The notes under the pieces: generated by a model
What the model was told of the DNA's origin: nothing
Databases searched by the model: none
What the model saw: only the letters and a program-made list of their open reading frames with translations
NCBI GenBank assembly: GCA_964534625.1
Contig: CAZHRF010000061.1
Location: forward strand, 807 to 14,470
Length of the DNA: 13,664 nt
DNA from: an uncultured archaeon
GTDB lineage: Archaea; Asgardarchaeota; Heimdallarchaeia; Heimdallarchaeales; Heimdallarchaeaceae
Reading direction: 5' to 3'
In this document: positions 2,972 through 13,664 of the stretch, piece after piece
How positions within the stretch are numbered: the stretch's first letter is position 1
How the letters are laid out: every line of letters begins with the position of its first letter
Program-made: the position numbers and the translations under genes

Positions 2972-3162
2972 GGGTGAACGTACTCCTTTATAAATAACGT
3001 GAAAATGACTAGAAAAGTGAATCAAAAAGGGAGAAAAAAGAAAAAATGAGTGAAGAAAAAAATAAGGTAAAAATAAGAATGGGGACGTAGGAAAACTGTA
3101 GAAGAGAGAAAGGGAAGAGATGATACGGAAATGTTGGTTGTTTCCACACTGGGAAAAACAAG
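2972..3162 (+). repeat. Left arm of long inverted repeat
   Basis: GTGAACGTACTCCTTTATAAA (2974-2994) is the exact reverse complement of 4211-4231. Collinear matching blocks continue (GTGAAAATGAC, AGAAAAGTGAATCAAAAA, GAGAGAAAG, ATGATACnGAAATGTT, ACACTGGGAAnAACAAG) to 3162. Confidence 0.92.
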
Positions 3163-3301
3163 GGATAACTAAGGAAAACACAACAAACTAGTGTAATAGA
3201 CATAGATGGACTGGATCAATAGTTTATGATAAATAGAGTTTTATTGGCACATGCATACCATTCAGTTTTACTTTTTATCTTTATGTAAATAATACTATGG
3301 T

Positions 3302-3368
3302 TGCTTAGAGTGAAATACAACAAAAATCTGTTGCGCTAGAAAAGACCGCAACAAAAAACTGTTGCATT
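3302..3368. repeat. Block 1: TGCTTAGAGTGAAAT followed by two palindromic units (GCAACA-N6-TGTTGC) at 31-bp period
   Basis: Units start at 3317 and 3348. Confidence 0.9.
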
Positions 3369-3474
3369 TATCTTAGATTGTCTTATTCAACATCATAGCG
3401 CAAATGGAAATGTTTCATTTTTTCTAATTGTAATCAAGTTCAAAATGTCATTTGCATTTTAATAATATTAGAAC

Positions 3475-3571
3475 TGCTTAGAGTGAAATGCAACAAAAAT
3501 CTGTTGCGCTAGAAAAAAACGCAACAAAAAACTGTTGCGCTAGGAAAAAACGCAATAAAAAACTGTTGCAT
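3475..3571. repeat. Block 2: same TGCTTAGAGTGAAAT head followed by three palindromic units at 31-bp period
   Basis: Units start at 3490, 3521 and 3552. The block is a direct repeat of block 1, offset by 173 bp. Confidence 0.9.
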
Positions 3572-3645
3572 CCAGAGATGAAGGCATGAGAAGGAACGAG
3601 AAGAAAGAAAAAAGGAAGAGGGGAAGGGGAGTGTTTCTTCATCAG

Positions 3646-3653
3646 TTTATATA
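3646..3653 (+). promoter_or_regulatory. TATA box for the Cas1-like ORF
   Basis: TTTATATA ends 26 nt before ATG 3679. Confidence 0.5.
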
Positions 3654-3678
3654 GCTGACTCACCTTATAGTAGGTACA

Positions 3679-3993
3679 ATGAAAGAAGTTGTATATATCA
3701 AATCATATGAAAAACCTATAGTCAGATATGGAAAGGTACTAGTTAAATCCAAAGACGGGGATAGAGAATATGAACCTGAAGAGATACACTCACTTGTTGT
3801 GGCATATCCAACCACTTCACAAGTAACAACAGACATTACAACAGTATTTGCTCTTACCAAGAGAAATATACCGATCTATTGGCTTGATGAAAAAAACAAC
3901 TATAGATTTATGGTGTGTACAATAGGACAACAAGATATAGTCAATGGGAAGATGGTGATCAAAATGATACTTCTTTTTCGAGTAAACCATTAA
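3679..3993 (+). CDS. Small protein resembling the N-terminal beta domain of Cas1; lacks the catalytic helical domain
   Basis: VYI...VLVKSKDGDREYEPEEIHSLVV...VTTD...ALTKRNIPIYWLDEKNNYRF follows the Cas1 N-terminal pattern (l.v......iP.e.I..iv.....sitt.....l....Ipi.fld..g.y). Recognised by eye only, with no HMM run. Confidence 0.6.
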   Translation: MKEVVYIKSYEKPIVRYGKVLVKSKDGDREYEPEEIHSLVVAYPTTSQVTTDITTVFALTKRNIPIYWLDEKNNYRFMVCTIGQQDIVNGKMVIKMILLFRVNH

Positions 3994-4042
3994 ATAATTA
4001 TTTAGAAAAACTCAATTCAGATCTCTAGTTTAAATTTTATAT

Positions 4043-4233
4043 CTTGTTCTTCCCAGTGTAAAAACATAGAACATTTCAGTATCATTTCTTCGCTTTCTCT
4101 CGTTTACATCTTCCCTACGCCCTCATTATTATTTTCACCTATTTTTTTCTTGCTTATTTTTCTCTCTTTTCTCCCTTTTTTGATTCACTTTTCTCGTCAT
4201 TTTCACTGTGTTTATAAAGGAGTACGTTCACTC
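4043..4233 (-). repeat. Right arm of long inverted repeat
   Basis: Reverse complement aligns collinearly with 2972-3162. Confidence 0.92.
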
Positions 4234-4247
4234 ATTTAGGGGTATAA

Positions 4248-4541
4248 ATGAAAGATATTGAAACAATAACAAAAATATTACTGGCTAATAAAAAACAACT
4301 TCAAATTGACTACAATGTTGAAGAAATTGGTGTTTTTGGTTCTTACGTTCGCGAAGAGCAATGCTATTCTAGTGATATTGATATTTTAGTCACTTTTAGT
4401 AAACCTATTGGAATGTTTAAATTTCTTGAATTAGAAGAATATCTGTCTTCTTTACTTGGATTACAAGTTGATTTGGTTTCTAAAAAAGCTTTGAAGCCTA
4501 AAATTGGTCAACACATCTTAGAAGAGGTATTAATAATTTGA
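4248..4541 (+). CDS. MNT nucleotidyltransferase antitoxin (MntA-like)
   Basis: GVFGSYVREEQCYSSDIDILV motif; VDLVSKKALKPKI; 4-nt overlap with the DUF86 gene. Confidence 0.92.
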   Translation: MKDIETITKILLANKKQLQIDYNVEEIGVFGSYVREEQCYSSDIDILVTFSKPIGMFKFLELEEYLSSLLGLQVDLVSKKALKPKIGQHILEEVLII

Positions 4542-4876
4542 AGCGTGAGCATTACGATTTCATTAAAGATATTCATGATTCTATTTTAGATATAGCTGAT
4601 TTTACAGCTAATCTAACTTATGAAGAATTTATCGGAGATAAAAAAACAGTCAATGCAGTTATTCGTAGTCTAGAAATAATAGGTGAAGCGTCAAAAAAGA
4701 TTCCTCCTACAATTAGAGAGAAAAATACGGATATACCTTGGAGATTGATGGCAAAAATGAGAGATAAGCTTATTCATCATTATCATGGGGTCGATTTAGA
4801 TATTATCTGGGTTGTTGTCACAGAAGATTTGCATCCATTAGAGGAAGCTATTAAGAAATTGCTAGCTGAACTATAA
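4538..4876 (+). CDS. HepT-like (DUF86) HEPN ribonuclease toxin
   Basis: AVIRSLEIIGEA...IPW...MRDKLIHHY contains the R-x4-H-x-Y motif. Confidence 0.92.
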   Translation: MKREHYDFIKDIHDSILDIADFTANLTYEEFIGDKKTVNAVIRSLEIIGEASKKIPPTIREKNTDIPWRLMAKMRDKLIHHYHGVDLDIIWVVVTEDLHPLEEAIKKLLAEL

Positions 4877-5195: not shown

Positions 5196-5528
5196 TTAAG
5201 TTAATATGTCCTTTATTGTTTCTTCAAGTTTAGGAACGTGGTTTATTATTACTTCCCAAAGAATTTCAAGATCTATTGAAAAATAAGCATGGATTAGAAT
5301 ATCACGTAATCCTGCAATTTTTCTCCATTCCATATTTTTTTTTTTTCTTTTTACTTCTTCAGGAATATTCTTAACAGCTTCACCAATAACTTCCAAATTT
5401 CTCATCACTGCATCTTGAATTAGAATTTCCGTTGAAAAATCCTCAAAAGATAGATTTTCAGTGTATTTTCTTATTCTTTTAATAGAATGTAAAATGTCTT
5501 CTAGATACAATTTATATTCCCTTGGCAT
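5196..5528 (-). CDS. HepT-like (DUF86) HEPN ribonuclease toxin
   Basis: DAVMRNLEVIGEAVKNIP...WRKIAGLRDILIHAYF contains the R-x4-H-x-Y motif. Confidence 0.93.
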   Translation of the reverse strand: MPREYKLYLEDILHSIKRIRKYTENLSFEDFSTEILIQDAVMRNLEVIGEAVKNIPEEVKRKKKNMEWRKIAGLRDILIHAYFSIDLEILWEVIINHVPKLEETIKDILT

Positions 5529-5823
5529 AGACTACACTACTCAAAATATTCTCTTTTAACGCTGGCTTAATATTCTCTTTAATTACTAAATCTATTGTAA
5601 GGTGAAAAAGATCTTCTAAGAATATTTTTAACCCCATGTAATTATCAAAACTCTTCTTTCCCTCTTTAAATTCTACTATGAAATCAATGTCACTGGAAGA
5701 AATTTGACCGCTTCTGACAAAAGAACCAAATACACCTAACTTTTTCACTCCGTACAACTTAATTTTATCTTTATTCTTCTGTATTATTTCCAAAATATCA
5801 GAAAGTGTTAGGGTCTGTTCCAT
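5512..5823 (-). CDS. MNT nucleotidyltransferase antitoxin (MntA-like)
   Basis: GVKKLGVFGSFVRSGQISSSDIDFIVEF; overlaps the DUF86 gene; upstream BRE/TATA-like CGAAAGTCATATAT on the minus strand (about 5846-5859). Confidence 0.92.
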   Translation of the reverse strand: MEQTLTLSDILEIIQKNKDKIKLYGVKKLGVFGSFVRSGQISSSDIDFIVEFKEGKKSFDNYMGLKIFLEDLFHLTIDLVIKENIKPALKENILSSVVYAKGI

Positions 5824-5925: not shown

Positions 5926-5933
5926 TTTAAATA
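5926..5933 (+). promoter_or_regulatory. Candidate TATA box of the his leader/operon transcript
   Basis: TTTAAATA ends 29 nt before ATG 5962 of the His-rich leader ORF. Confidence 0.45.
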
Positions 5934-5961
5934 ATGCTCAAGTTTTGATTTACTTGATTGT

Positions 5962-6123
5962 ATGGAAAATCCCAGTGTATTTATTAGCTTTCGATATGAA
6001 ATTAAGTTCATTAGAGAGCAGAATATTCAAGGATCTGGGAAAAGAATTGGTTATATTTTTAGCAATTTGAATAGTAACTTTTTAACATCTTCAAATACTG
6101 CTGCCATACATCATCACCATTAA
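5962..6123 (+). CDS. Putative his operon leader peptide (53 aa from ATG 5962, or 18 aa from in-frame TTG 6067) ending in HHHH
   Basis: MENPSVFISFRYEIKFIREQNIQGSGKRIGYIFSNLNSNFLTSSNTAAIHHHH*. CAT CAT CAC CAT TAA at 6109-6123 are the only His codons in the ORF and sit directly upstream of the first his gene. Confidence 0.7.
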   Translation: MENPSVFISFRYEIKFIREQNIQGSGKRIGYIFSNLNSNFLTSSNTAAIHHHH

Positions 6124-6222
6124 GTTTGCCACAATATCTTTCTAGGTTGGCAAGTTGATATTAAAATCAGCTTAGTTGAACTTAGGGGGTGAGTATTGTG
6201 GTCTATTTTAGGAGAGATAGAG
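6124..6222 (+). promoter_or_regulatory. Candidate attenuator RNA with alternative pairings over the hisIE ribosome-binding region
   Basis: CCACAATA 6129-6136 pairs with TATTGTGG 6194-6201. 6138-6148 pairs with 6179-6189 (with G-U). Inner hairpin at 6152-6173. Alternatively TATCTTTCT 6135-6143 pairs with GGAGAGATA 6211-6219. Confidence 0.55.
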
Positions 6223-7398
6223 ATGATTCTATATAAAAAAAGCGTAAAAAAAGATTTTGGAAATACCTTACCTATATTAGCCAAGGCTATAAAAGAAGTA
6301 ATACTAATATCACCAATAATACTTGAGTTGGGTAATCAACAACTAACAGAACTGATTAAGTCTAGATTGTTTGATAGCATTGAACAGAATCAAAGGATAT
6401 GGATTAAAAAGAAAACAGATATTACAAACACACAGATCAATCAACTGCTAACTCAAGGGTTTGGTAAGATTATTTTATCCCATGAACTGTACATTAAGAA
6501 TAAATTATCGATACCTCTATCAAGAGTTTGCATTGAGGTCAATGGAAAATACTTGGGAGAGGACAGTACTAGGATAGGATTACCTCCCACTATTCCTTTG
6601 ATCATTACAAATCCTGGTACACAATTTGAAGAAAAGTTGAGCTTAGACGAACTATATTCTTTGTTGACTAAACTGTCTAATCCACTCATAATCGATGTTA
6701 CCTCGGTAGATGTTGAAAAGAATCGATTAATTTCTTTAGTGCGTCAAGGAATAAGAATAATCAAAGATTTTGACCCTCTTATTCCAATAGTCGATTACGC
6801 GAAAGAAAACAGTGATTTTTTAGACTTTTTCAAGGGAAATGGTTTGATACCAACAATCGTGCAAGATGGGAGTAAAAACATCTTAATGCTCGCTTATTCG
6901 ACCACTGAATCTTTTTTTAAGACAGTAAAGACAAAATGTGCTACATATTTCAGTAGAAGTAGGAATAAGTTATGGGTTAAAGGAGAAACATCTGGAAATG
7001 TACAAAAAATCGTTCAGATTGCGTATGATTGTGATGGTGACACATTGCTATATACGGTTAAACAACAAGGTGTAGCATGCCATACAAATAGTTACTCTTG
7101 TTTTAATATAGAACCATTTGGTCTAGAAACCCTTTACAGCTTAATAAAACAACGACAAGAACAACCATCAGCATATGACCGTTCTCAGCCTACTTCATTT
7201 ACTGTTAAACTGCTAGAAAATATTGATTTGTTAAAATCAAAAATAATTGAAGAAGCAAAAGAAGTAGTAAATTTTACTGATCGAGAAAATCTGATCTGGG
7301 AATTAGCTGATCTCTCCTACTTTTTACTAGTTTTGATGGTGAAGAACAATATAACTTTGACAGAAGTTAAGAATGAACTCTGGAGAAGAAGAAAATGA
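6223..7398 (+). CDS. hisIE: Bifunctional PR-AMP cyclohydrolase / PR-ATP diphosphatase with a ~200-aa N-terminal extension (alternative start TTG 6196)
   Basis: YFSRSRNKLWVKGETSGN, DCDGDTL and ACHTNSYSCF (HisI); KIIEEAKEV and WELADLSYF (HisE); AGGAGA SD 7 nt before ATG 6223. Confidence 0.92.
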   Translation: MILYKKSVKKDFGNTLPILAKAIKEVILISPIILELGNQQLTELIKSRLFDSIEQNQRIWIKKKTDITNTQINQLLTQGFGKIILSHELYIKNKLSIPLSRVCIEVNGKYLGEDSTRIGLPPTIPLIITNPGTQFEEKLSLDELYSLLTKLSNPLIIDVTSVDVEKNRLISLVRQGIRIIKDFDPLIPIVDYAKENSDFLDFFKGNGLIPTIVQDGSKNILMLAYSTTESFFKTVKTKCATYFSRSRNKLWVKGETSGNVQKIVQIAYDCDGDTLLYTVKQQGVACHTNSYSCFNIEPFGLETLYSLIKQRQEQPSAYDRSQPTSFTVKLLENIDLLKSKIIEEAKEVVNFTDRENLIWELADLSYFLLVLMVKNNITLTEVKNELWRRRK

Positions 7399-8432
7399 AT
7401 CAAATAAATCGAATACTATCCTACAAACAAGGAATAAATAAGGAAGAATCAAAGCCTATACGTTTAGCTCTCCCTTCAAAAGGGCGAATGCAAGACGAAA
7501 CACAAGTTTTTTTGAAGAATTGTGGTTTTACAATTACGCGAAAAAACCGTCAATATATTGGTTATCTATCAGGTTTTGAGGATGAAATGGTACTAGTTTA
7601 TAACAGACAAAAAGATATCATTAGAGGCATTGTTCATGGTTCTATTGATATGGCTATTGTTGGATATGATCTAGTATGTGAATTTGTAAAGGATTTATCC
7701 AAGATTGTAGTCATTCACGAAGCATTGGGATTTGGAGATTGTTCTCTTGCTCTAGCTGTTCCAGAGACATGGGAAATAGATGATATTACTGATCTTCAAC
7801 AGAGAGATGGCAAACTTAGAGTTGCCACCAAATTTCCCCTCCTAACAACAAAGTTTCTTAACGAGAATAATCTTAAATATGAACTAATACAAGGGGAAGG
7901 TTCGCTTGAAGTGTATCCTGCACTAGATTATGCTGATGTTATTGTAGATCTTGTTTCTACAGGTCAGACTCTTAAAGATAATAGACTCAAGCAAATAAAT
8001 GGAGGAACAATTTTAGAATCTGAAGCTGTATTTATTGGTAAGATCCAATCTTTAAAAAAACCTGGTGTTTTACGAGTTGCCCAAGAGTTATTAGAATATT
8101 TTGAAGCTAGATTAAGAGCAGAGAGATATGTTTCGTTATATGCTAATATGAGAGGCAATTCTCCTGAAAAAATAGTCCAAAAAATGTTCAATCAAGATGG
8201 TTTGGCAGGTTTAGATGGTCCCACTATTTCTCCTATTATTAATAAATCTGGAGAAAAAATGTTTGCTGTTCATATCATTGTAGAACGACAAAACCTTCAG
8301 AATGCTATTAAAGATTTACGTAAAATAGGTGGAAGCGGAGTGGTTGTTAGTCCTGCTTTGTACATTTTCGAAGAAGAACCTGTAAGGTATAAAAAATTGA
8401 TTAAGCGAGTAGGAGTGGAAAGTGATGATTAG
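7395..8432 (+). CDS. hisG: ATP phosphoribosyltransferase, long form
   Basis: RLALPSKGRM, RVATKFP, GSLEVYPALDYADVIVDLVSTGQTLKDNRL, and a C-terminal regulatory domain with GLDGPTISP. Confidence 0.96.
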   Translation: MNQINRILSYKQGINKEESKPIRLALPSKGRMQDETQVFLKNCGFTITRKNRQYIGYLSGFEDEMVLVYNRQKDIIRGIVHGSIDMAIVGYDLVCEFVKDLSKIVVIHEALGFGDCSLALAVPETWEIDDITDLQQRDGKLRVATKFPLLTTKFLNENNLKYELIQGEGSLEVYPALDYADVIVDLVSTGQTLKDNRLKQINGGTILESEAVFIGKIQSLKKPGVLRVAQELLEYFEARLRAERYVSLYANMRGNSPEKIVQKMFNQDGLAGLDGPTISPIINKSGEKMFAVHIIVERQNLQNAIKDLRKIGGSGVVVSPALYIFEEEPVRYKKLIKRVGVESDD

Positions 8433-9825
8433 TCTCTATACCAAAAAAGAAGCTCAACAGACAATCCTTAAACGTAAAAGTATATTGGATGTGGAATTGC
8501 CAGAAAGGCTAAAAAAAGGGATAAAGGAGCTGTTTGGAAGAGATTTAACTGCTCAAGAAGTAGTACTAGAGATTATTGCTGATGTTAGAAATCAAGGAGA
8601 TCCAGCTTTAATTAAATGGACAAGACTCTTAGATAAAGTCGAGTTGTCTTCTTTAGAAATATCGCCTAAAAAGATAGAAGAATCGCTTACATTAATAAAA
8701 TCCTCTGTTCTGCAAGCTCTAAGACTAGCAAGAGATAGGATACGGGCATTCCACGAAAATCAACCTATTAAGACTTGGATGCAAAATGATATGCAGTTAG
8801 GACAGATAGTACGACCAATAGAAAAAGTTGGAATTTATGTACCAGGTGGTACTGCTCCTTTACCTTCAACAGTCCTTATGTGTTCTATTCCCGCTATTGT
8901 TGCAGGTTCGAGTAAACTAGTGATTTGTTCTCCACCGAATAAAAAAGGCAAAATGGATCCAACTATACTAGCTGCTTGTCAGCTGTTAAAGGAATTAGAT
9001 GTTGAAGTAAGAGTCTATATGCTAGGCGGAGCTCAAGCTATAGCTGCTATGGCATATGGAACAAAGCAAGTAGATGCAGTAGATAAAATAGTTGGACCTG
9101 GAAATATTTTTGTCAGCTTAGCCAAAAAAGAAGTCTATGGGCAAGTAGGAATAGATGGGATCTATGGACCGACTGAAGCTATGCTTCTTGCTGATGAAAG
9201 TGCCTCAAGTTCTCTTCTTGCTGCTGATTTGTTAGCTCAAGCAGAACATGATATGCTGTCAATACCAATTATGGTAACTACTTCAGCAAAATTGGCCAAA
9301 GCTGTCAAAGAAGAAGTTGAAAAACAGATTCAATTTCTTGAAAGAGAAGATATAGCCAAATATAGTATGGAAAATCAAGGAGGTATAGTGATAACCCCTA
9401 CAATTGAAGAAGCAGTAGAAGTTTGTAATAATTTTGCACCAGAGCACTTGTCGATAATAACAAAAGATAATTGGGCAATCATTCCAAAAATAAGGAATGC
9501 TGGCGGTATTTTTGTGGGTGAATATAGCTGTGAGGTAATTGGTGATTATATTGCGGGTCCCTCACACACCATGCCAACGAATGGTACAGCAAAATTTTCT
9601 TCAGCCTTATCCGTCTATGATTTTGTCAAATTTATAAATTTGATAGCTCTTGATAAGAAAACATCAATGGAATTGGCAAAAGGGGCTAAAATAATTGCAA
9701 AAGAAGAAAAATTAGGTGGTCACGCTAATGCAGCTAAACAAAGGATCGAGAAAAAGAAAAAACAAGATCAAACCAATAATAAACTTTCAGGAGGTTTTGG
9801 TTATGCCCAAGCAAGTATTCACTAG
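8422..9825 (+). CDS. hisD: Histidinol dehydrogenase
   Basis: VGIYVPGG, GGAQAIAAMAYGT, DKIVGPGNIFV, GPTE, QAEHD, APEHL, GDYIAGPSHTMPT. Confidence 0.97.
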   Translation: MMISLYTKKEAQQTILKRKSILDVELPERLKKGIKELFGRDLTAQEVVLEIIADVRNQGDPALIKWTRLLDKVELSSLEISPKKIEESLTLIKSSVLQALRLARDRIRAFHENQPIKTWMQNDMQLGQIVRPIEKVGIYVPGGTAPLPSTVLMCSIPAIVAGSSKLVICSPPNKKGKMDPTILAACQLLKELDVEVRVYMLGGAQAIAAMAYGTKQVDAVDKIVGPGNIFVSLAKKEVYGQVGIDGIYGPTEAMLLADESASSSLLAADLLAQAEHDMLSIPIMVTTSAKLAKAVKEEVEKQIQFLEREDIAKYSMENQGGIVITPTIEEAVEVCNNFAPEHLSIITKDNWAIIPKIRNAGGIFVGEYSCEVIGDYIAGPSHTMPTNGTAKFSSALSVYDFVKFINLIALDKKTSMELAKGAKIIAKEEKLGGHANAAKQRIEKKKKQDQTNNKLSGGFGYAQASIH

Positions 9826-10948
9826 GAAAATAAGTAAAATATCAGAATATGATGCCTTATCAACTCAATCCTTCAAACAAAACAAAAAAAACTTGGAGAT
9901 TAATGATAAAATCATCAAGATAGATGGAAATGAAAATCCCTTTCCATTACTAGATGACTGTAGACAAGCATTACAAGAGATAGATAGTCTTAGTTACTAT
10001 CCCGACCCTGAATCAGTTGAATTGGTAAAAGCATTATCAAAAAAATATGATATACCTTCTGAACAGATTATTATTACAGCTGGATCGGATGAACTAATTG
10101 ATTTATTGTTTAGATGTTTATTAGAGAAAGAAGATAGAGTAGTTTCCATTAGTCCTACCTTTGGAATTTATAAATTTCTCACTGAACTCAATAGCGGAAT
10201 ATACGATGAAGTAGAAACAGAGTTAGTCGTTAACAAGAAAACCAAAGGTGCTTCATTCAAGATTAATACAGAAGAACTGGTTGAAAAAGCCAAAAAAGCT
10301 AGAATTACCATCCTTGCTCGTCCAAATAATCCAGATGGTGGGTTGATATCTGAAGAAATAATTGAAGCACTTCTACAAATTGATACTAATCTTGTTATTG
10401 ATGAAGCGTACATAGAGTTTACAGATAACCAAAGCATGAGTAAAAAAGTATTAACGAATGAGAATCTAATAGTTCTTAGAACCTTTAGTAAAGCGTATGG
10501 TTTAGCTGGTATAAGATTGGGGTATGGAATGCTTAATTCAGAACTCAAAAAAGCATTAATGAAAATAAAACAACCGTACAATGTTAACAGTATAGCTCAG
10601 AAATTGGGAGCTGTTGTGTTGAATAAGAAAAAGGTTGAAGAAAATATCTCTAAAATAAAAACAATACGGGGGAGCTTCTACTCTGATCTGCTTGTTTTAG
10701 CCCAGTTAACTGGATCTTTTAGTGTATTTAAGAGTTCATCTAACTTTATTCTTACCCGATTTAATGATTTACAATTAAAGAAAGCTCTTTCAGCATATCT
10801 TTACAGTAATGGGATCTTAGTTCGTGAATACAACACCAATCGCCTTGAAAATTATATTCGATTCAGTATGGCAACTGAAAATGAGATGAATAAAGTTATG
10901 GAGAAACTCCGATACTTTTTTGAAAAAATGGGTGATGAAATTGAATAG
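9803..10948 (+). CDS. hisC: Histidinol-phosphate aminotransferase
   Basis: NENPF, YPDP, GSDELI, PNNP, IDEAYIEF, RTFSKAYGLAGIRLGY (PLP lysine). Start placed at ATG 9803 behind GGAGG. Confidence 0.95.
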   Translation: MPKQVFTRKISKISEYDALSTQSFKQNKKNLEINDKIIKIDGNENPFPLLDDCRQALQEIDSLSYYPDPESVELVKALSKKYDIPSEQIIITAGSDELIDLLFRCLLEKEDRVVSISPTFGIYKFLTELNSGIYDEVETELVVNKKTKGASFKINTEELVEKAKKARITILARPNNPDGGLISEEIIEALLQIDTNLVIDEAYIEFTDNQSMSKKVLTNENLIVLRTFSKAYGLAGIRLGYGMLNSELKKALMKIKQPYNVNSIAQKLGAVVLNKKKVEENISKIKTIRGSFYSDLLVLAQLTGSFSVFKSSSNFILTRFNDLQLKKALSAYLYSNGILVREYNTNRLENYIRFSMATENEMNKVMEKLRYFFEKMGDEIE

Positions 10949-11543
10949 AAAGGCAATAGTCGAACGAAAAACTGAGGAAACCTGGCTGAAAGTATATTTA
11001 GATATAGACGAAGCTGGTGAGTCTGAAATTAATACTGGAATCAAATTATTTGATCACTTTCTTGAACAGATTTCAGTTCATGGAAATTTTACTCTGCGCA
11101 TAGAAACGCTGAAAGCAGATGTAGATGTAGATACTCACCATCTGATAGAGGATACAGCTATTGTTATCGGTCAAGTTTTTACTGAAGCTATTGGTTCTAA
11201 GATTGGTATAGTAAGAACAGCTGCAAGTAAAGTACCAATGGATGAATCCCTAGCTGAAGTAATTATTGATTTCTCTGGTCGCCCTTTTTTCAAAGGACAG
11301 TTTAATTGGCAGGGGTATACAATAGGTTCTACTAATATACTCAAAACTAGTATGGTAGAACATTTTTTGTATTCATTTGCAATCAATGCTAAACTTACCC
11401 TTCATTCTAGAGTTTATTATGGTAATGATAATCATCACATGGCTGAAGCTTTATTCAAAGCTTTGGGAAGGGCTTTAGATAAAGCATCGCGGATAGATGA
11501 GAAAGGGAGTAAGACTATTCCATCATCTAAGGGAATACTATAG
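10941..11543 (+). CDS. hisB: Imidazoleglycerol-phosphate dehydratase (monofunctional)
   Basis: RKTEET, DTHHLIED, PMDESL, NHHMAEALFKA, PSSKG. TTG 10941 lies 5 nt after GGTGA; ATG 10935 is also possible. Confidence 0.95.
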   Translation: MNRKAIVERKTEETWLKVYLDIDEAGESEINTGIKLFDHFLEQISVHGNFTLRIETLKADVDVDTHHLIEDTAIVIGQVFTEAIGSKIGIVRTAASKVPMDESLAEVIIDFSGRPFFKGQFNWQGYTIGSTNILKTSMVEHFLYSFAINAKLTLHSRVYYGNDNHHMAEALFKALGRALDKASRIDEKGSKTIPSSKGIL

Positions 11544-11553
11544 GTGAATAATA

Positions 11554-12174
11554 ATGATAGTAATAATTGATTATGGAGTAGGTAACTTACGTTCAGTCCA
11601 GAAAAGCTTGCAAATTTATTATCCGGATGTGATTATATCATCTAAAGCAGAAGAGATTGAATCTGCTGTGGGATTGGTTTTACCTGGAGTCGGCTCATTT
11701 GGTGATTCTATTGAAGAATTAGAGGAATTAGGCTTATATAGTTTGTTACGCAAACAGCTGAGGTGTAAATTTTCTTTAGGTATATGTTTAGGTATGCAAT
11801 TATTGTTTGAATCTTCAGAAGAAAGTCCCGGCTATAAAGGACTTGAACTATTAAAGGGGCATAATATCAAACTTCAAGATTCTTCTGTGCGCGTACCTCA
11901 TCAAGGATGGAATAAAGTAATCCCATGGGTAACTGCAGAACCAGTATTTAGTGGGTATGCGTATTTTTCTCATACATATAGCTGCCAACCTCAAGATGAA
12001 CAAATTATAAGAGCAAGAACACTTCATGGATCATTTTTTCCAAGTATAATAGAATGGGGAACAATCTTGGCTACACAGTTTCATCCTGAAAAAAGCAAAA
12101 CATTAGGATATAAAGTGTTGAAATACTATATTTCAAAGGTGAAAAATTATGAAAGAGATAATTCCTGCAATTGA
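11554..12174 (+). CDS. hisH: Imidazole glycerol phosphate synthase glutaminase subunit
   Basis: IIDYGVGNLRSV, LPGVGSF, GICLGMQLL, QFHPEKS; AGGTGA SD. Confidence 0.96.
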   Translation: MIVIIDYGVGNLRSVQKSLQIYYPDVIISSKAEEIESAVGLVLPGVGSFGDSIEELEELGLYSLLRKQLRCKFSLGICLGMQLLFESSEESPGYKGLELLKGHNIKLQDSSVRVPHQGWNKVIPWVTAEPVFSGYAYFSHTYSCQPQDEQIIRARTLHGSFFPSIIEWGTILATQFHPEKSKTLGYKVLKYYISKVKNYERDNSCN

Positions 12175-13664
12175 CTTGATGAAAGGTAAAGTTGTTAGAC
12201 TTTACAAAGGAAAGAGAACAGAAGTAACTACATACTCTTCTGATCCAATAGAAGTAGCTGAAAACTTGTTTAAACACGGATTTCAATGGTTACATATTAT
12301 TAATCTTGATGGTGCTTTGACAGGAGATTTAGAAGAAAATGAGAACTACGCCATAATTCTTGAATTGCTCTCACTTGCTAATGAATGGGGAGTAAAAGTA
12401 CAATTGGGTGGGGGACTGAGAAGCTATGAAGATATTAGTTTTCTCTTATCAGCTGGAACTGAACGCGTAATACTTGGTACTTTGGCCTTTGAAAATGAAG
12501 TAATATTGAAACGTTTAGTGGAAGAGTTTGCAGATAGAATTGTGGTAGCTTTAGATGTTTCCGAAAATGATTCTTTGTGCATAGAGGGGTGGAAAACAAA
12601 GATATCTGAAAATATAATAGATGCGCTTCATCGTTTTGAGTGTCTTGGTGTAAAAACTTTTCTTGTTACTGATACACAGCGGGATGGCACTATTCAAGGA
12701 TCTAATCTAAAATTATATTCTCTTCTTCAAAAGTATAAAAATGAAGATACGCATATAATTTCAGCTGGAGGAATAGGCTCTAAAAAGGATATTGAAGAGG
12801 TATTATCGATTGTTGATTCCGTAGTTGTTGGAAAAGCTCTCTATGAAAATAAACTGACTCTTGATGAACTTGAACAACTGATACTTCACTATGTATCAAC
12901 TTACTTGACGAAAAGAATAATTCCTTGTTTGGACGTTAAGAAAGGATTAGTGGTTAAAGGCGTTAATTTCAAAGATCTAAAAATTAGTGGTCATCCTGTT
13001 GAACTTGCACATAAATATGATGCATCTGGAGCTGATGAATTGGTATTTTTAGATATTTCAGCGACAATAGAAGGAAGAAAAAGTATGTTAAAAGTAATTA
13101 GTGAGGTAGCAGAAGAAGTAGGACTACCTTTTACTGTAGGTGGAGGTATAAAGAGCCTAGAAGATATGACTTCTATAATACAAGCTGGTGCTGAAAAAGT
13201 ATGCATTAATACTGCAGCATATTTGAATCCTTTATTAATTTCCGCGGGAGCAAAACAGTTTGGCTCACAGAGTATAGTTGTCGCAATTGATGCAAAGAAA
13301 AATAGTACTCAAAACTTTTGGGAAGTGGTTATTCGAGCTGGTAATGAACCCACAGGTAAAGACGTAATTGAATTTGCCAAAGAAGTAGTAGAACTTGGAG
13401 CAGGAGAATTGCTTGTAACATCTATAGATCATGATGGAACAAAAGAAGGGTATAATGAAGAGTTATTGATTGAGTTGGTAAAAAGTGTGAATGTTCCTAT
13501 AATAATTTCGGGTGGGGCAGGAAAGAAAGAACACTTTTTAAAGGCTATCAATAATGGTGCTGACGCTACCTTGGCAGCTTCACTTTTTCATCTTGATAAG
13601 TTACAAATTGAGGAATTAAAAAACTATCTTTTGTCTAAAGGAGTTAAAATGAGGATTGAAACAG
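12149..13664 (+). CDS. hisA-hisF: In-frame fusion of HisA (ProFAR isomerase, about 12149-12880) and HisF (IGP synthase cyclase, from 12905); 3' end runs off the window
   Basis: MKEIIPAIDLMKGKVVRLYKG...GGGLRS...RDGT...SAGGI...VGKALYE, then with no stop LEQLILHYVSTY-LTKRIIPCLDVKKGLVVKGVNF...GADELVFLDISA...SIDHDGTKEGY...SGGAG...LAASLFH; AGGTGA SD. Confidence 0.93.
   Translation, partial: MKEIIPAIDLMKGKVVRLYKGKRTEVTTYSSDPIEVAENLFKHGFQWLHIINLDGALTGDLEENENYAIILELLSLANEWGVKVQLGGGLRSYEDISFLLSAGTERVILGTLAFENEVILKRLVEEFADRIVVALDVSENDSLCIEGWKTKISENIIDALHRFECLGVKTFLVTDTQRDGTIQGSNLKLYSLLQKYKNEDTHIISAGGIGSKKDIEEVLSIVDSVVVGKALYENKLTLDELEQLILHYVSTYLTKRIIPCLDVKKGLVVKGVNFKDLKISGHPVELAHKYDASGADELVFLDISATIEGRKSMLKVISEVAEEVGLPFTVGGGIKSLEDMTSIIQAGAEKVCINTAAYLNPLLISAGAKQFGSQSIVVAIDAKKNSTQNFWEVVIRAGNEPTGKDVIEFAKEVVELGAGELLVTSIDHDGTKEGYNEELLIELVKSVNVPIIISGGAGKKEHFLKAINNGADATLAASLFHLDKLQIEELKNYLLSKGVKMRIET

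Follow-up and report, generated by a model that had tools for sequence, protein, structure and literature searches.

We analyzed a window of 13,664 nt (contig CAZHRF010000061.1, positions 807 to 14,470) from a Heimdallarchaeaceae genome. The window carries a complete histidine biosynthesis operon in the order hisIE-G-D-C-B-H-A/F, preceded by a short open reading frame (ORF) that ends in four consecutive His codons (Table 1). The host is an archaeon. Its genome (3.37 Mb, 32% GC) contains an archaeal 16S tail with the anti-Shine–Dalgarno (anti-SD) sequence and encodes aCPSF1. The contig bearing the operon (C61) matches the tetranucleotide profile of the genome, and four DNA sequencing runs, probably of the source samples, confirmed the assembly with zero variants. 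The aCPSF1/FttA gene itself is a 1,256-codon open frame (G000:C3:5499-9119, minus strand) with an insertion of about 575 amino acids near a catalytic motif, bounded by Cys and His-Asn-Ser, which is probably an intein.

Table 1 Features of the his operon and its upstream region (window coordinates)
Feature	Position	Strand	Remarks
TATA-like box	5926-5933	+	From sequence; start site predicted only
Leader ORF	5962-6123	+	53 aa; no SD; no Pfam match; absent from the protein collection
Alternative in-frame TTG start of the leader ORF	6067	+	From sequence
Four His codons (CAT CAT CAC CAT), putative sensor	6109-6120	+	
Leader stop codon TAA	6121-6123	+	
Hairpin A, long, stop-proximal	6128-6202	+	Outer stem 6128-6137/6193-6202, middle stem, inner hairpin 6152-6173
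Candidate TTG start of hisIE, disfavoured	6196-6198	+	
Small hairpin over the hisIE ribosome-binding site	6203-6220	+	GGAG 6211-6214 mostly in the loop
hisIE, first gene of the operon	6223-7398	+	391 aa; degenerate N-terminal domain, PRA-CH, PRA-PH
hisG, hisD, hisC, hisB, hisH, fused hisA-hisF	7395-13648	+	Rest of the operon

An earlier reading of this DNA, made from its letters alone (the sequence-only reading), had proposed that the short ORF is a His-codon leader controlling the operon. The ORF, its His codons, the internal TTG, the TATA-like box and both candidate hisIE starts were all found where that reading had placed them. Both starts are in the hisIE frame. We favor ATG 6223 because its distance of 8 nt from the GGAG motif is the modal spacing of the genome and because most HisIE homologues begin at the equivalent position; the gap of 3 between a GGTGA motif and TTG 6196 is uncommon here (3 cases genome-wide, with peaks at 4 and 6). 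The N-terminal 190 amino acids of HisIE (6223-6800) have no Pfam hit and stand where a HisA-like barrel is found in the HisIE of other Asgard archaea. At the other end of the operon, hisA and hisF are fused in a single frame (12152-13648).

The operon is rare among relatives of the host: hisD was detected in 12 of 83 genomes of the class and in two of 31 of the family. Directly 5' of it lie three toxin–antitoxin-type pairs of the MNT-HEPN/HepT kind (1938-2658, 4248-4876 and 5196-5823). This rarity, together with the adjoining pairs, suggests that the operon was gained horizontally. The region between two of the pairs (2974-4231) contains 195-nt inverted repeats (78%) around a 104-amino-acid ORF (3679-3993) with a weak match to the Cas1 N-terminus (E 0.015), as well as short direct repeats (3264-3569), and is possibly a mobile-element or casposon-like remnant. 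Further upstream, the minus strand of 1-1850 encodes a large protein that looks secreted and contains repeats along with Asp-rich motifs of the calcium-binding type, and there is an exact 69-nt duplication at the start of the window.

The leader ORF is real and exceeds chance expectation. Four His codons followed by a stop occur twice in the 6.74 Mb that make up both strands of the genome, and of the 1,223 genes whose free upstream DNA spans 150 nt or more, hisIE is the only one preceded by an ORF ending in at least four His codons. The same upstream-ORF scan recovered no leaders for other amino acids in this genome, and argG, trpA and ilvD were not found in it (90% complete). In the SD-less first genes of the genome, TATA-like hexamers peak at −31 to −27 from the ATG, with a shoulder at −38 to −35, and the box of the leader, at −35/−34, falls inside that shoulder. 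Given this position, the leader mRNA probably begins just before ATG 5962 and includes the His codons; the predicted start, a few nucleotides 5' of the ATG, would leave the transcript leaderless or with a very short leader. We consider it most unlikely that the ORF is a decayed relic or that its His run arose by chance. The window leader does lack an alignable homologue and has only four His codons, and a possible weak second TATA-like stretch lies at 6159-6167; against this stand the uniqueness of the arrangement genome-wide, the 58 open codons in DNA of 30% GC and the strand specificity of the hairpin behind the stop codon (z −4.7).

We then compared the locus with its relatives. Forty Asgard loci with the same type of HisG were fetched, 35 of them with sufficient upstream DNA. 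In 20 of these 35 informative loci, a cluster of four to eight His codons is followed by a stop codon 75–156 nt before the first his gene; these homologous leaders are kin, and the counts are not of independent events. The leaders precede orthologous operons, hisIE-first as well as hisC-first (L122-L124), occur in a second Heimdallarchaeia genome (L129), and are spread over several distinct branches in the HisG tree. Between 24 and 54 codons precede the His cluster in the homologous leaders. The stop-to-start distance is 75–99 nt in 18 of 21 leaders (99 nt in the window), and structure reaches right up to the SD. Nine metagenome loci, some of them duplicates of the genomes, carry the same leader; a first metagenome scan had given no match, and a scan of genome contigs for hisIE returned mostly unrelated hisIE loci.

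No His cluster was present in the other 15 informative loci, which comprise a nine-member Loki-type clade, five hisG-first operons and one further locus (L127). The Loki-type clade (L109, L110, L112-L116, L119 and L120) has the same operon order and short spacers in place of a leader, and so serves as a natural control. Two other loci (L111 and L121) join a leader-type hisIE to the hisG of this leaderless clade, which suggests recombined operons. Upstream of hisIE in L127 (genome G058) is an ORF of 57 codons, five of them scattered His codons, with its stop codon in the foot of a hairpin; it is possibly a weak leader variant. The hisG-first operons of same-order genomes (L125, L128, L130, L131 and L134) have no poly-His leader; an SD-led mini-ORF 5' of hisG carries one His codon within a near-palindrome (GTGA-N6-TCAC), and a second copy is often present upstream. 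The +1 frame of this mini-ORF is the hisG frame in five of five cases; in L131, no other ATG precedes the conserved portion of hisG. The element is a candidate operator site or a candidate site of His-starvation frameshifting.

The sequence-only reading had proposed to check relatives for a conserved His run and covarying stems. Alongside the His clusters described above, four helices covary in the alignable Loki-type clade of leaders, with six pairs showing two-sided changes as opposed to at most four in slid controls. One helix lies around the leader start, one joins the His codons to an upstream complement, one starts from the stop codon and one abuts the SD. In this clade the promoter, SD and start codon are in register. 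All eight indels within the leader ORF are multiples of three, compared with five of 20 outside it. The preserved frame and the aligned SD and start, all from homologues, are indirect signs that the leader may be translated. Constraint on the peptide is relaxed (pN/pS 0.48, vs 0.18 in hisIE), and the His codons are CAT rather than CAC at 93:7 in leaders vs 152:58 in operon genes.

These patterns also bear on whether the ORF might simply encode a small, His-tailed, metal-binding protein, the hairpin being constitutive. About 50 amino acids is long for a leader peptide, and a pN/pS below 1 would suit a functional protein. However, only the His residues of the peptide are conserved, its length ranges between about 30 and 60 amino acids, one clade has lost 14 codons, and the ORF always stands directly before the his operon, whichever gene comes first. 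We regard a protein function as very unlikely. The window leader and the Loki-type leaders have a design in common, and their sequences cannot be aligned: a profile of the Loki-clade leaders, searched with nhmmer, did not find the leader of the window. The HisG of the window nevertheless branches as the sister of the main leader-bearing Loki-type clade (97/85, on a long branch and with a midpoint root only).

Behind the leader stop codon lies a stable RNA structure. The region 6121-6230 folds at −36.4 kcal/mol, with a z-score of −4.68 on the plus strand and −2.13 on the minus strand. The pairing of 6128-6148 with 6179-6202 that the sequence-only reading had called A holds up, and forms one long stem together with the inner hairpin; an SD-like run (6185-6192) is buried within it. 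Because hairpin A begins 4 nt past the leader stop codon, it should be melted only by a terminating ribosome. Indeed, in constrained folding, with a ribosome footprint assumed to extend 11 nt beyond the start of the A-site, the outer stem of A had a pairing probability of 0.97–0.98 with the ribosome on the first three His codons, 0.79 on the fourth and 0.08 on the stop codon. Stalled and terminating ribosomes are therefore predicted in silico to leave different RNA folds. With no ribosome present, His codons 6110-6115 pair with the hisIE start (6222-6227; P 0.40–0.50). With a ribosome at the stop codon, the freed 3' arm of A extends the small hairpin at 6203-6220 over the AUG (P 0.45–0.58). 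The predicted probability that AUG 6223 is unpaired is accordingly 0.08–0.15 without a ribosome, 0.74–0.84 with a stalled one and 0.25–0.31 with one at the stop codon.

The specific switch put forward by the sequence-only reading fared less well, and we find it scarcely credible. In that scheme, A marks the ON state and gives way in the OFF state to pairing B, between 6135-6143 and the ribosome-binding site (6211-6219), or else A itself sequesters a start at TTG 6196. In the folding, the outer stem of A does stay intact under a stalled ribosome and open under one at the stop codon, and an SD-like run does lie ahead of TTG 6196. Pairing B, however, though complementary on paper (9 bp, two of them G-U), had a probability of 0.000 in every ribosome state and lay 7–8 kcal/mol above the best fold even at the stop codon, because the middle of A remains paired. 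No equivalent of B was found in homologues. The variant with TTG 6196 would act in the direction opposite to that expected of a biosynthetic operon, as the cost of opening this start falls from 18.9 to 8.4 kcal/mol when the ribosome reaches the stop codon. A third pairing it had listed, 6126-6131 with 6148-6153, exists as a co-transcriptional intermediate and nothing beyond that.

Across the relatives compared, then, the his operon lies behind a short ORF with His codons at its end; this ORF keeps its frame and is followed directly by a stable hairpin. We conclude that the leader is very probably a sensor of His-tRNA that switches the operon on in starvation, whatever its output. The core idea of the sequence-only reading, a His-codon leader controlling an archaeal his operon, thus draws strong support from conservation, from indels that keep the frame and from controls across the genome. 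Evidence against a sensor comes from one relative (L122) in which a frameshift separates the ATG from the His run, from the 15 loci without a cluster, and from the unalignable sequence of the window leader. In the proposed mechanism, transcription would start just 5' of ATG 5962 and ribosomes would translate the leader. When charged His-tRNA is scarce, a ribosome would stall on the His codons, covering them and leaving hairpin A whole; when histidine is plentiful, it would reach the stop codon, melt A at its foot and depart.

As to what the sensor controls, our leading, still tentative, proposal is access to the hisIE start, including the silencing of the remaining genes by polarity. Without a ribosome, the AUG region would pair with the His codons, and with a ribosome at the stop codon it would pair with the freed 3' arm of A, so that a stalled ribosome would be the sole state with a free hisIE start. 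If hisIE then went untranslated, the rest of the operon could be silenced through archaeal polarity, which has been ascribed to FttA (aCPSF1) (PMC12548453). We rank start-site control first because structure is packed onto the SD at a near-fixed distance and because U-tracts are missing. Several results count against it. The effect of the fold on AUG 6223 is small (1.8–3.8 kcal/mol). When 150 foreign start regions were put in place of the hisIE start, 58% of them gave an equally large summed effect, and only one of 16 leaders beat its own such null. RBS-opening energies computed for 21 leaders did not show a consistent switch, and a search of 20 aligned Loki-type leaders found no conserved helix over the SD or AUG. 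As for the earlier claim that the switch would be translational either way, the effect at AUG 6223 has the right sign, but random starts match it and no anti-SD helix is conserved in the aligned Loki-type leaders.

A transcriptional output of the same sensor is less likely, though it deserves serious consideration. Here a finishing ribosome would melt A and expose naked RNA, leading to termination by aCPSF1/FttA before or early in hisIE, whereas under a stalled ribosome A would form and hide the loading site, as an archaeal counterpart of Rho-dependent attenuation at mgtL and corL. It would account for the hairpin at the stop codon being the most conserved element of the leaders while no anti-SD helix is conserved. 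Its factor is encoded in the genome, hisC-first relatives carry T5–T8 tracts, and bacterial-type sister operons use termination. Factor-dependent termination gated by an upstream ORF (uORF) is established in bacteria (PMC12360218), and aCPSF1 targets nascent U-rich RNA, with a functional orthologue in Lokiarchaeota (PMC13675443). The region between stop and start is, however, no richer in U than background (42nd percentile of the convergent 3' flanks of the genome), U-tracts are not enriched across the leaders, and U4 is entirely absent from three of them. Most of A also remains paired with the ribosome at the stop codon, and termination would not need a fixed spacing to the SD. Intrinsic termination has no counterpart here: as the sequence-only reading had noted, no hairpin-plus-U-tract terminator precedes hisIE (a single U4 lies at 6205-6208), and we found no mutually exclusive antiterminator/terminator pair at the leader.

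An output through mRNA stability appears improbable. A stalled ribosome and an intact hairpin might shield the operon mRNA against nucleases, or stalling might trigger a cut that leaves a stable mRNA with a 5' hairpin. Leaders with 24–54 codons before the His cluster could queue ribosomes, and so stable a hairpin would suit a decay barrier, but the tight coupling of hairpin foot to stop codon is more simply understood as a switch. Two other candidates were rejected. Read-through or frameshifting into hisIE does not fit the stop-to-start distances, which occur in all three frames, or the second in-frame stop at 6190-6192. Termination–reinitiation has the wrong sign, and coupling of this kind fades past about 30 nt (PMC12548453).

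Altogether, we consider it likely that Asgard archaea possess ribosome-mediated leader-peptide control of His synthesis, probably acquired with a bacterial-type operon and rebuilt in terminator-free form to act on start-site access, on aCPSF1 (the orthologue of eukaryotic CPSF73), or on both. Leader-peptide attenuation is a textbook bacterial mechanism. In archaea, a 2014 transcriptome paper stated that attenuators had no direct experimental support (PMC4247193), and we found no later report of an archaeal attenuator or leader-peptide sensor in a search that covered the subscription literature thinly. Archaeal uORFs have been observed with no function assigned (PMC7261190, PMC10117724, PMC4983044), and the control of amino-acid operons in archaea has been attributed to DNA-binding proteins (PMC6737238). 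If our reading is true, the prokaryotes closest to eukaryotes would have an amino-acid-specific uORF sensor, and its output would indicate the degree of coupling between ribosomes and RNA polymerase in archaea and would be relevant to how eukaryotic uORF control arose. With a His sensor conserved across two classes of Asgard archaea, the question becomes open to direct testing, since the element is small, can be moved into genetically tractable archaea and has a carrier (G137) that appears to be the cultured Lokiarchaeum ossiferum.

Among known systems, the enterobacterial hisL leader, which comprises 16 codons, is the obvious comparison. Both it (Rfam His_leader; Escherichia coli, Salmonella) and the Asgard leader have a leader ORF with clustered His codons ahead of the his operon, and in hisL, charged tRNA-His is sensed by ribosome stalling (PMC12360218). 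The Asgard leader differs in its 53 codons, its probably leaderless transcript, its archaeal machinery, and the lack of both a GC hairpin with U-tract and a terminator/antiterminator pair. Rfam, including His_leader, gave no meaningful match in the window or the homologous loci. With no intrinsic terminator, no antiterminator pair and no Rfam match, the Asgard leader works like hisL yet lies outside its family.

The nearest HisG proteins found outside Asgard archaea (43–48% identity) belong to GC-rich, hisG-first operons of bacterial type (e.g., L153, L164, L171, L176 and L179), which are probably from Chloroflexota. These operons share with the Asgard ones a related HisG and a leader ORF with a His cluster that stops shortly before the first his gene, but they have a textbook terminator of GC hairpin and U-tract that the archaeal leaders are missing. 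The association of attenuators with the nearest HisG suggests a bacterial origin of the Asgard operon, which may have arrived with its leader and had it rebuilt later. Classical His attenuators were seen in 11 GC-rich bacterial-type loci in all (L153, L154, L160, L164, L166, L170, L171, L174, L176, L178 and L179), and Rfam His_leader at its gathering score missed the four that were checked (L164, L171, L176 and L179).

Within archaea, Xie and Reeve (2005) reportedly proposed that a Met-Trp minigene at Methanothermobacter trpY links amino-acid supply to translation of the next gene. This, too, is an archaeal mini-ORF tied to amino-acid supply, but it has two codons, controls a repressor gene and lacks a codon run and a hairpin. 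The established control of that operon is exerted by TrpY, a DNA-binding protein (PMC6737238).

The models that come closest in their working are the leaderless poly-Cys ORFs of mycobacteria (10.1101/834739) and the Rho attenuators gated by uORFs, such as mgtL, corL, tnaC and speFL (PMC12360218). In the former, a terminal run of codons for a single amino acid, no terminator and a stalled ribosome that keeps the downstream start open parallel the arrangement proposed here, and a duplex sequestering the RBS was shown by mutation; they differ in that they sense Cys and are bacterial, and in that the Asgard duplex is indistinguishable from its null. In the latter, the position of a ribosome on a uORF sets the fold, again with no intrinsic terminator. 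Rho is bacterial and these attenuators answer to other signals, and the Asgard counterpart of Rho would be aCPSF1/FttA.
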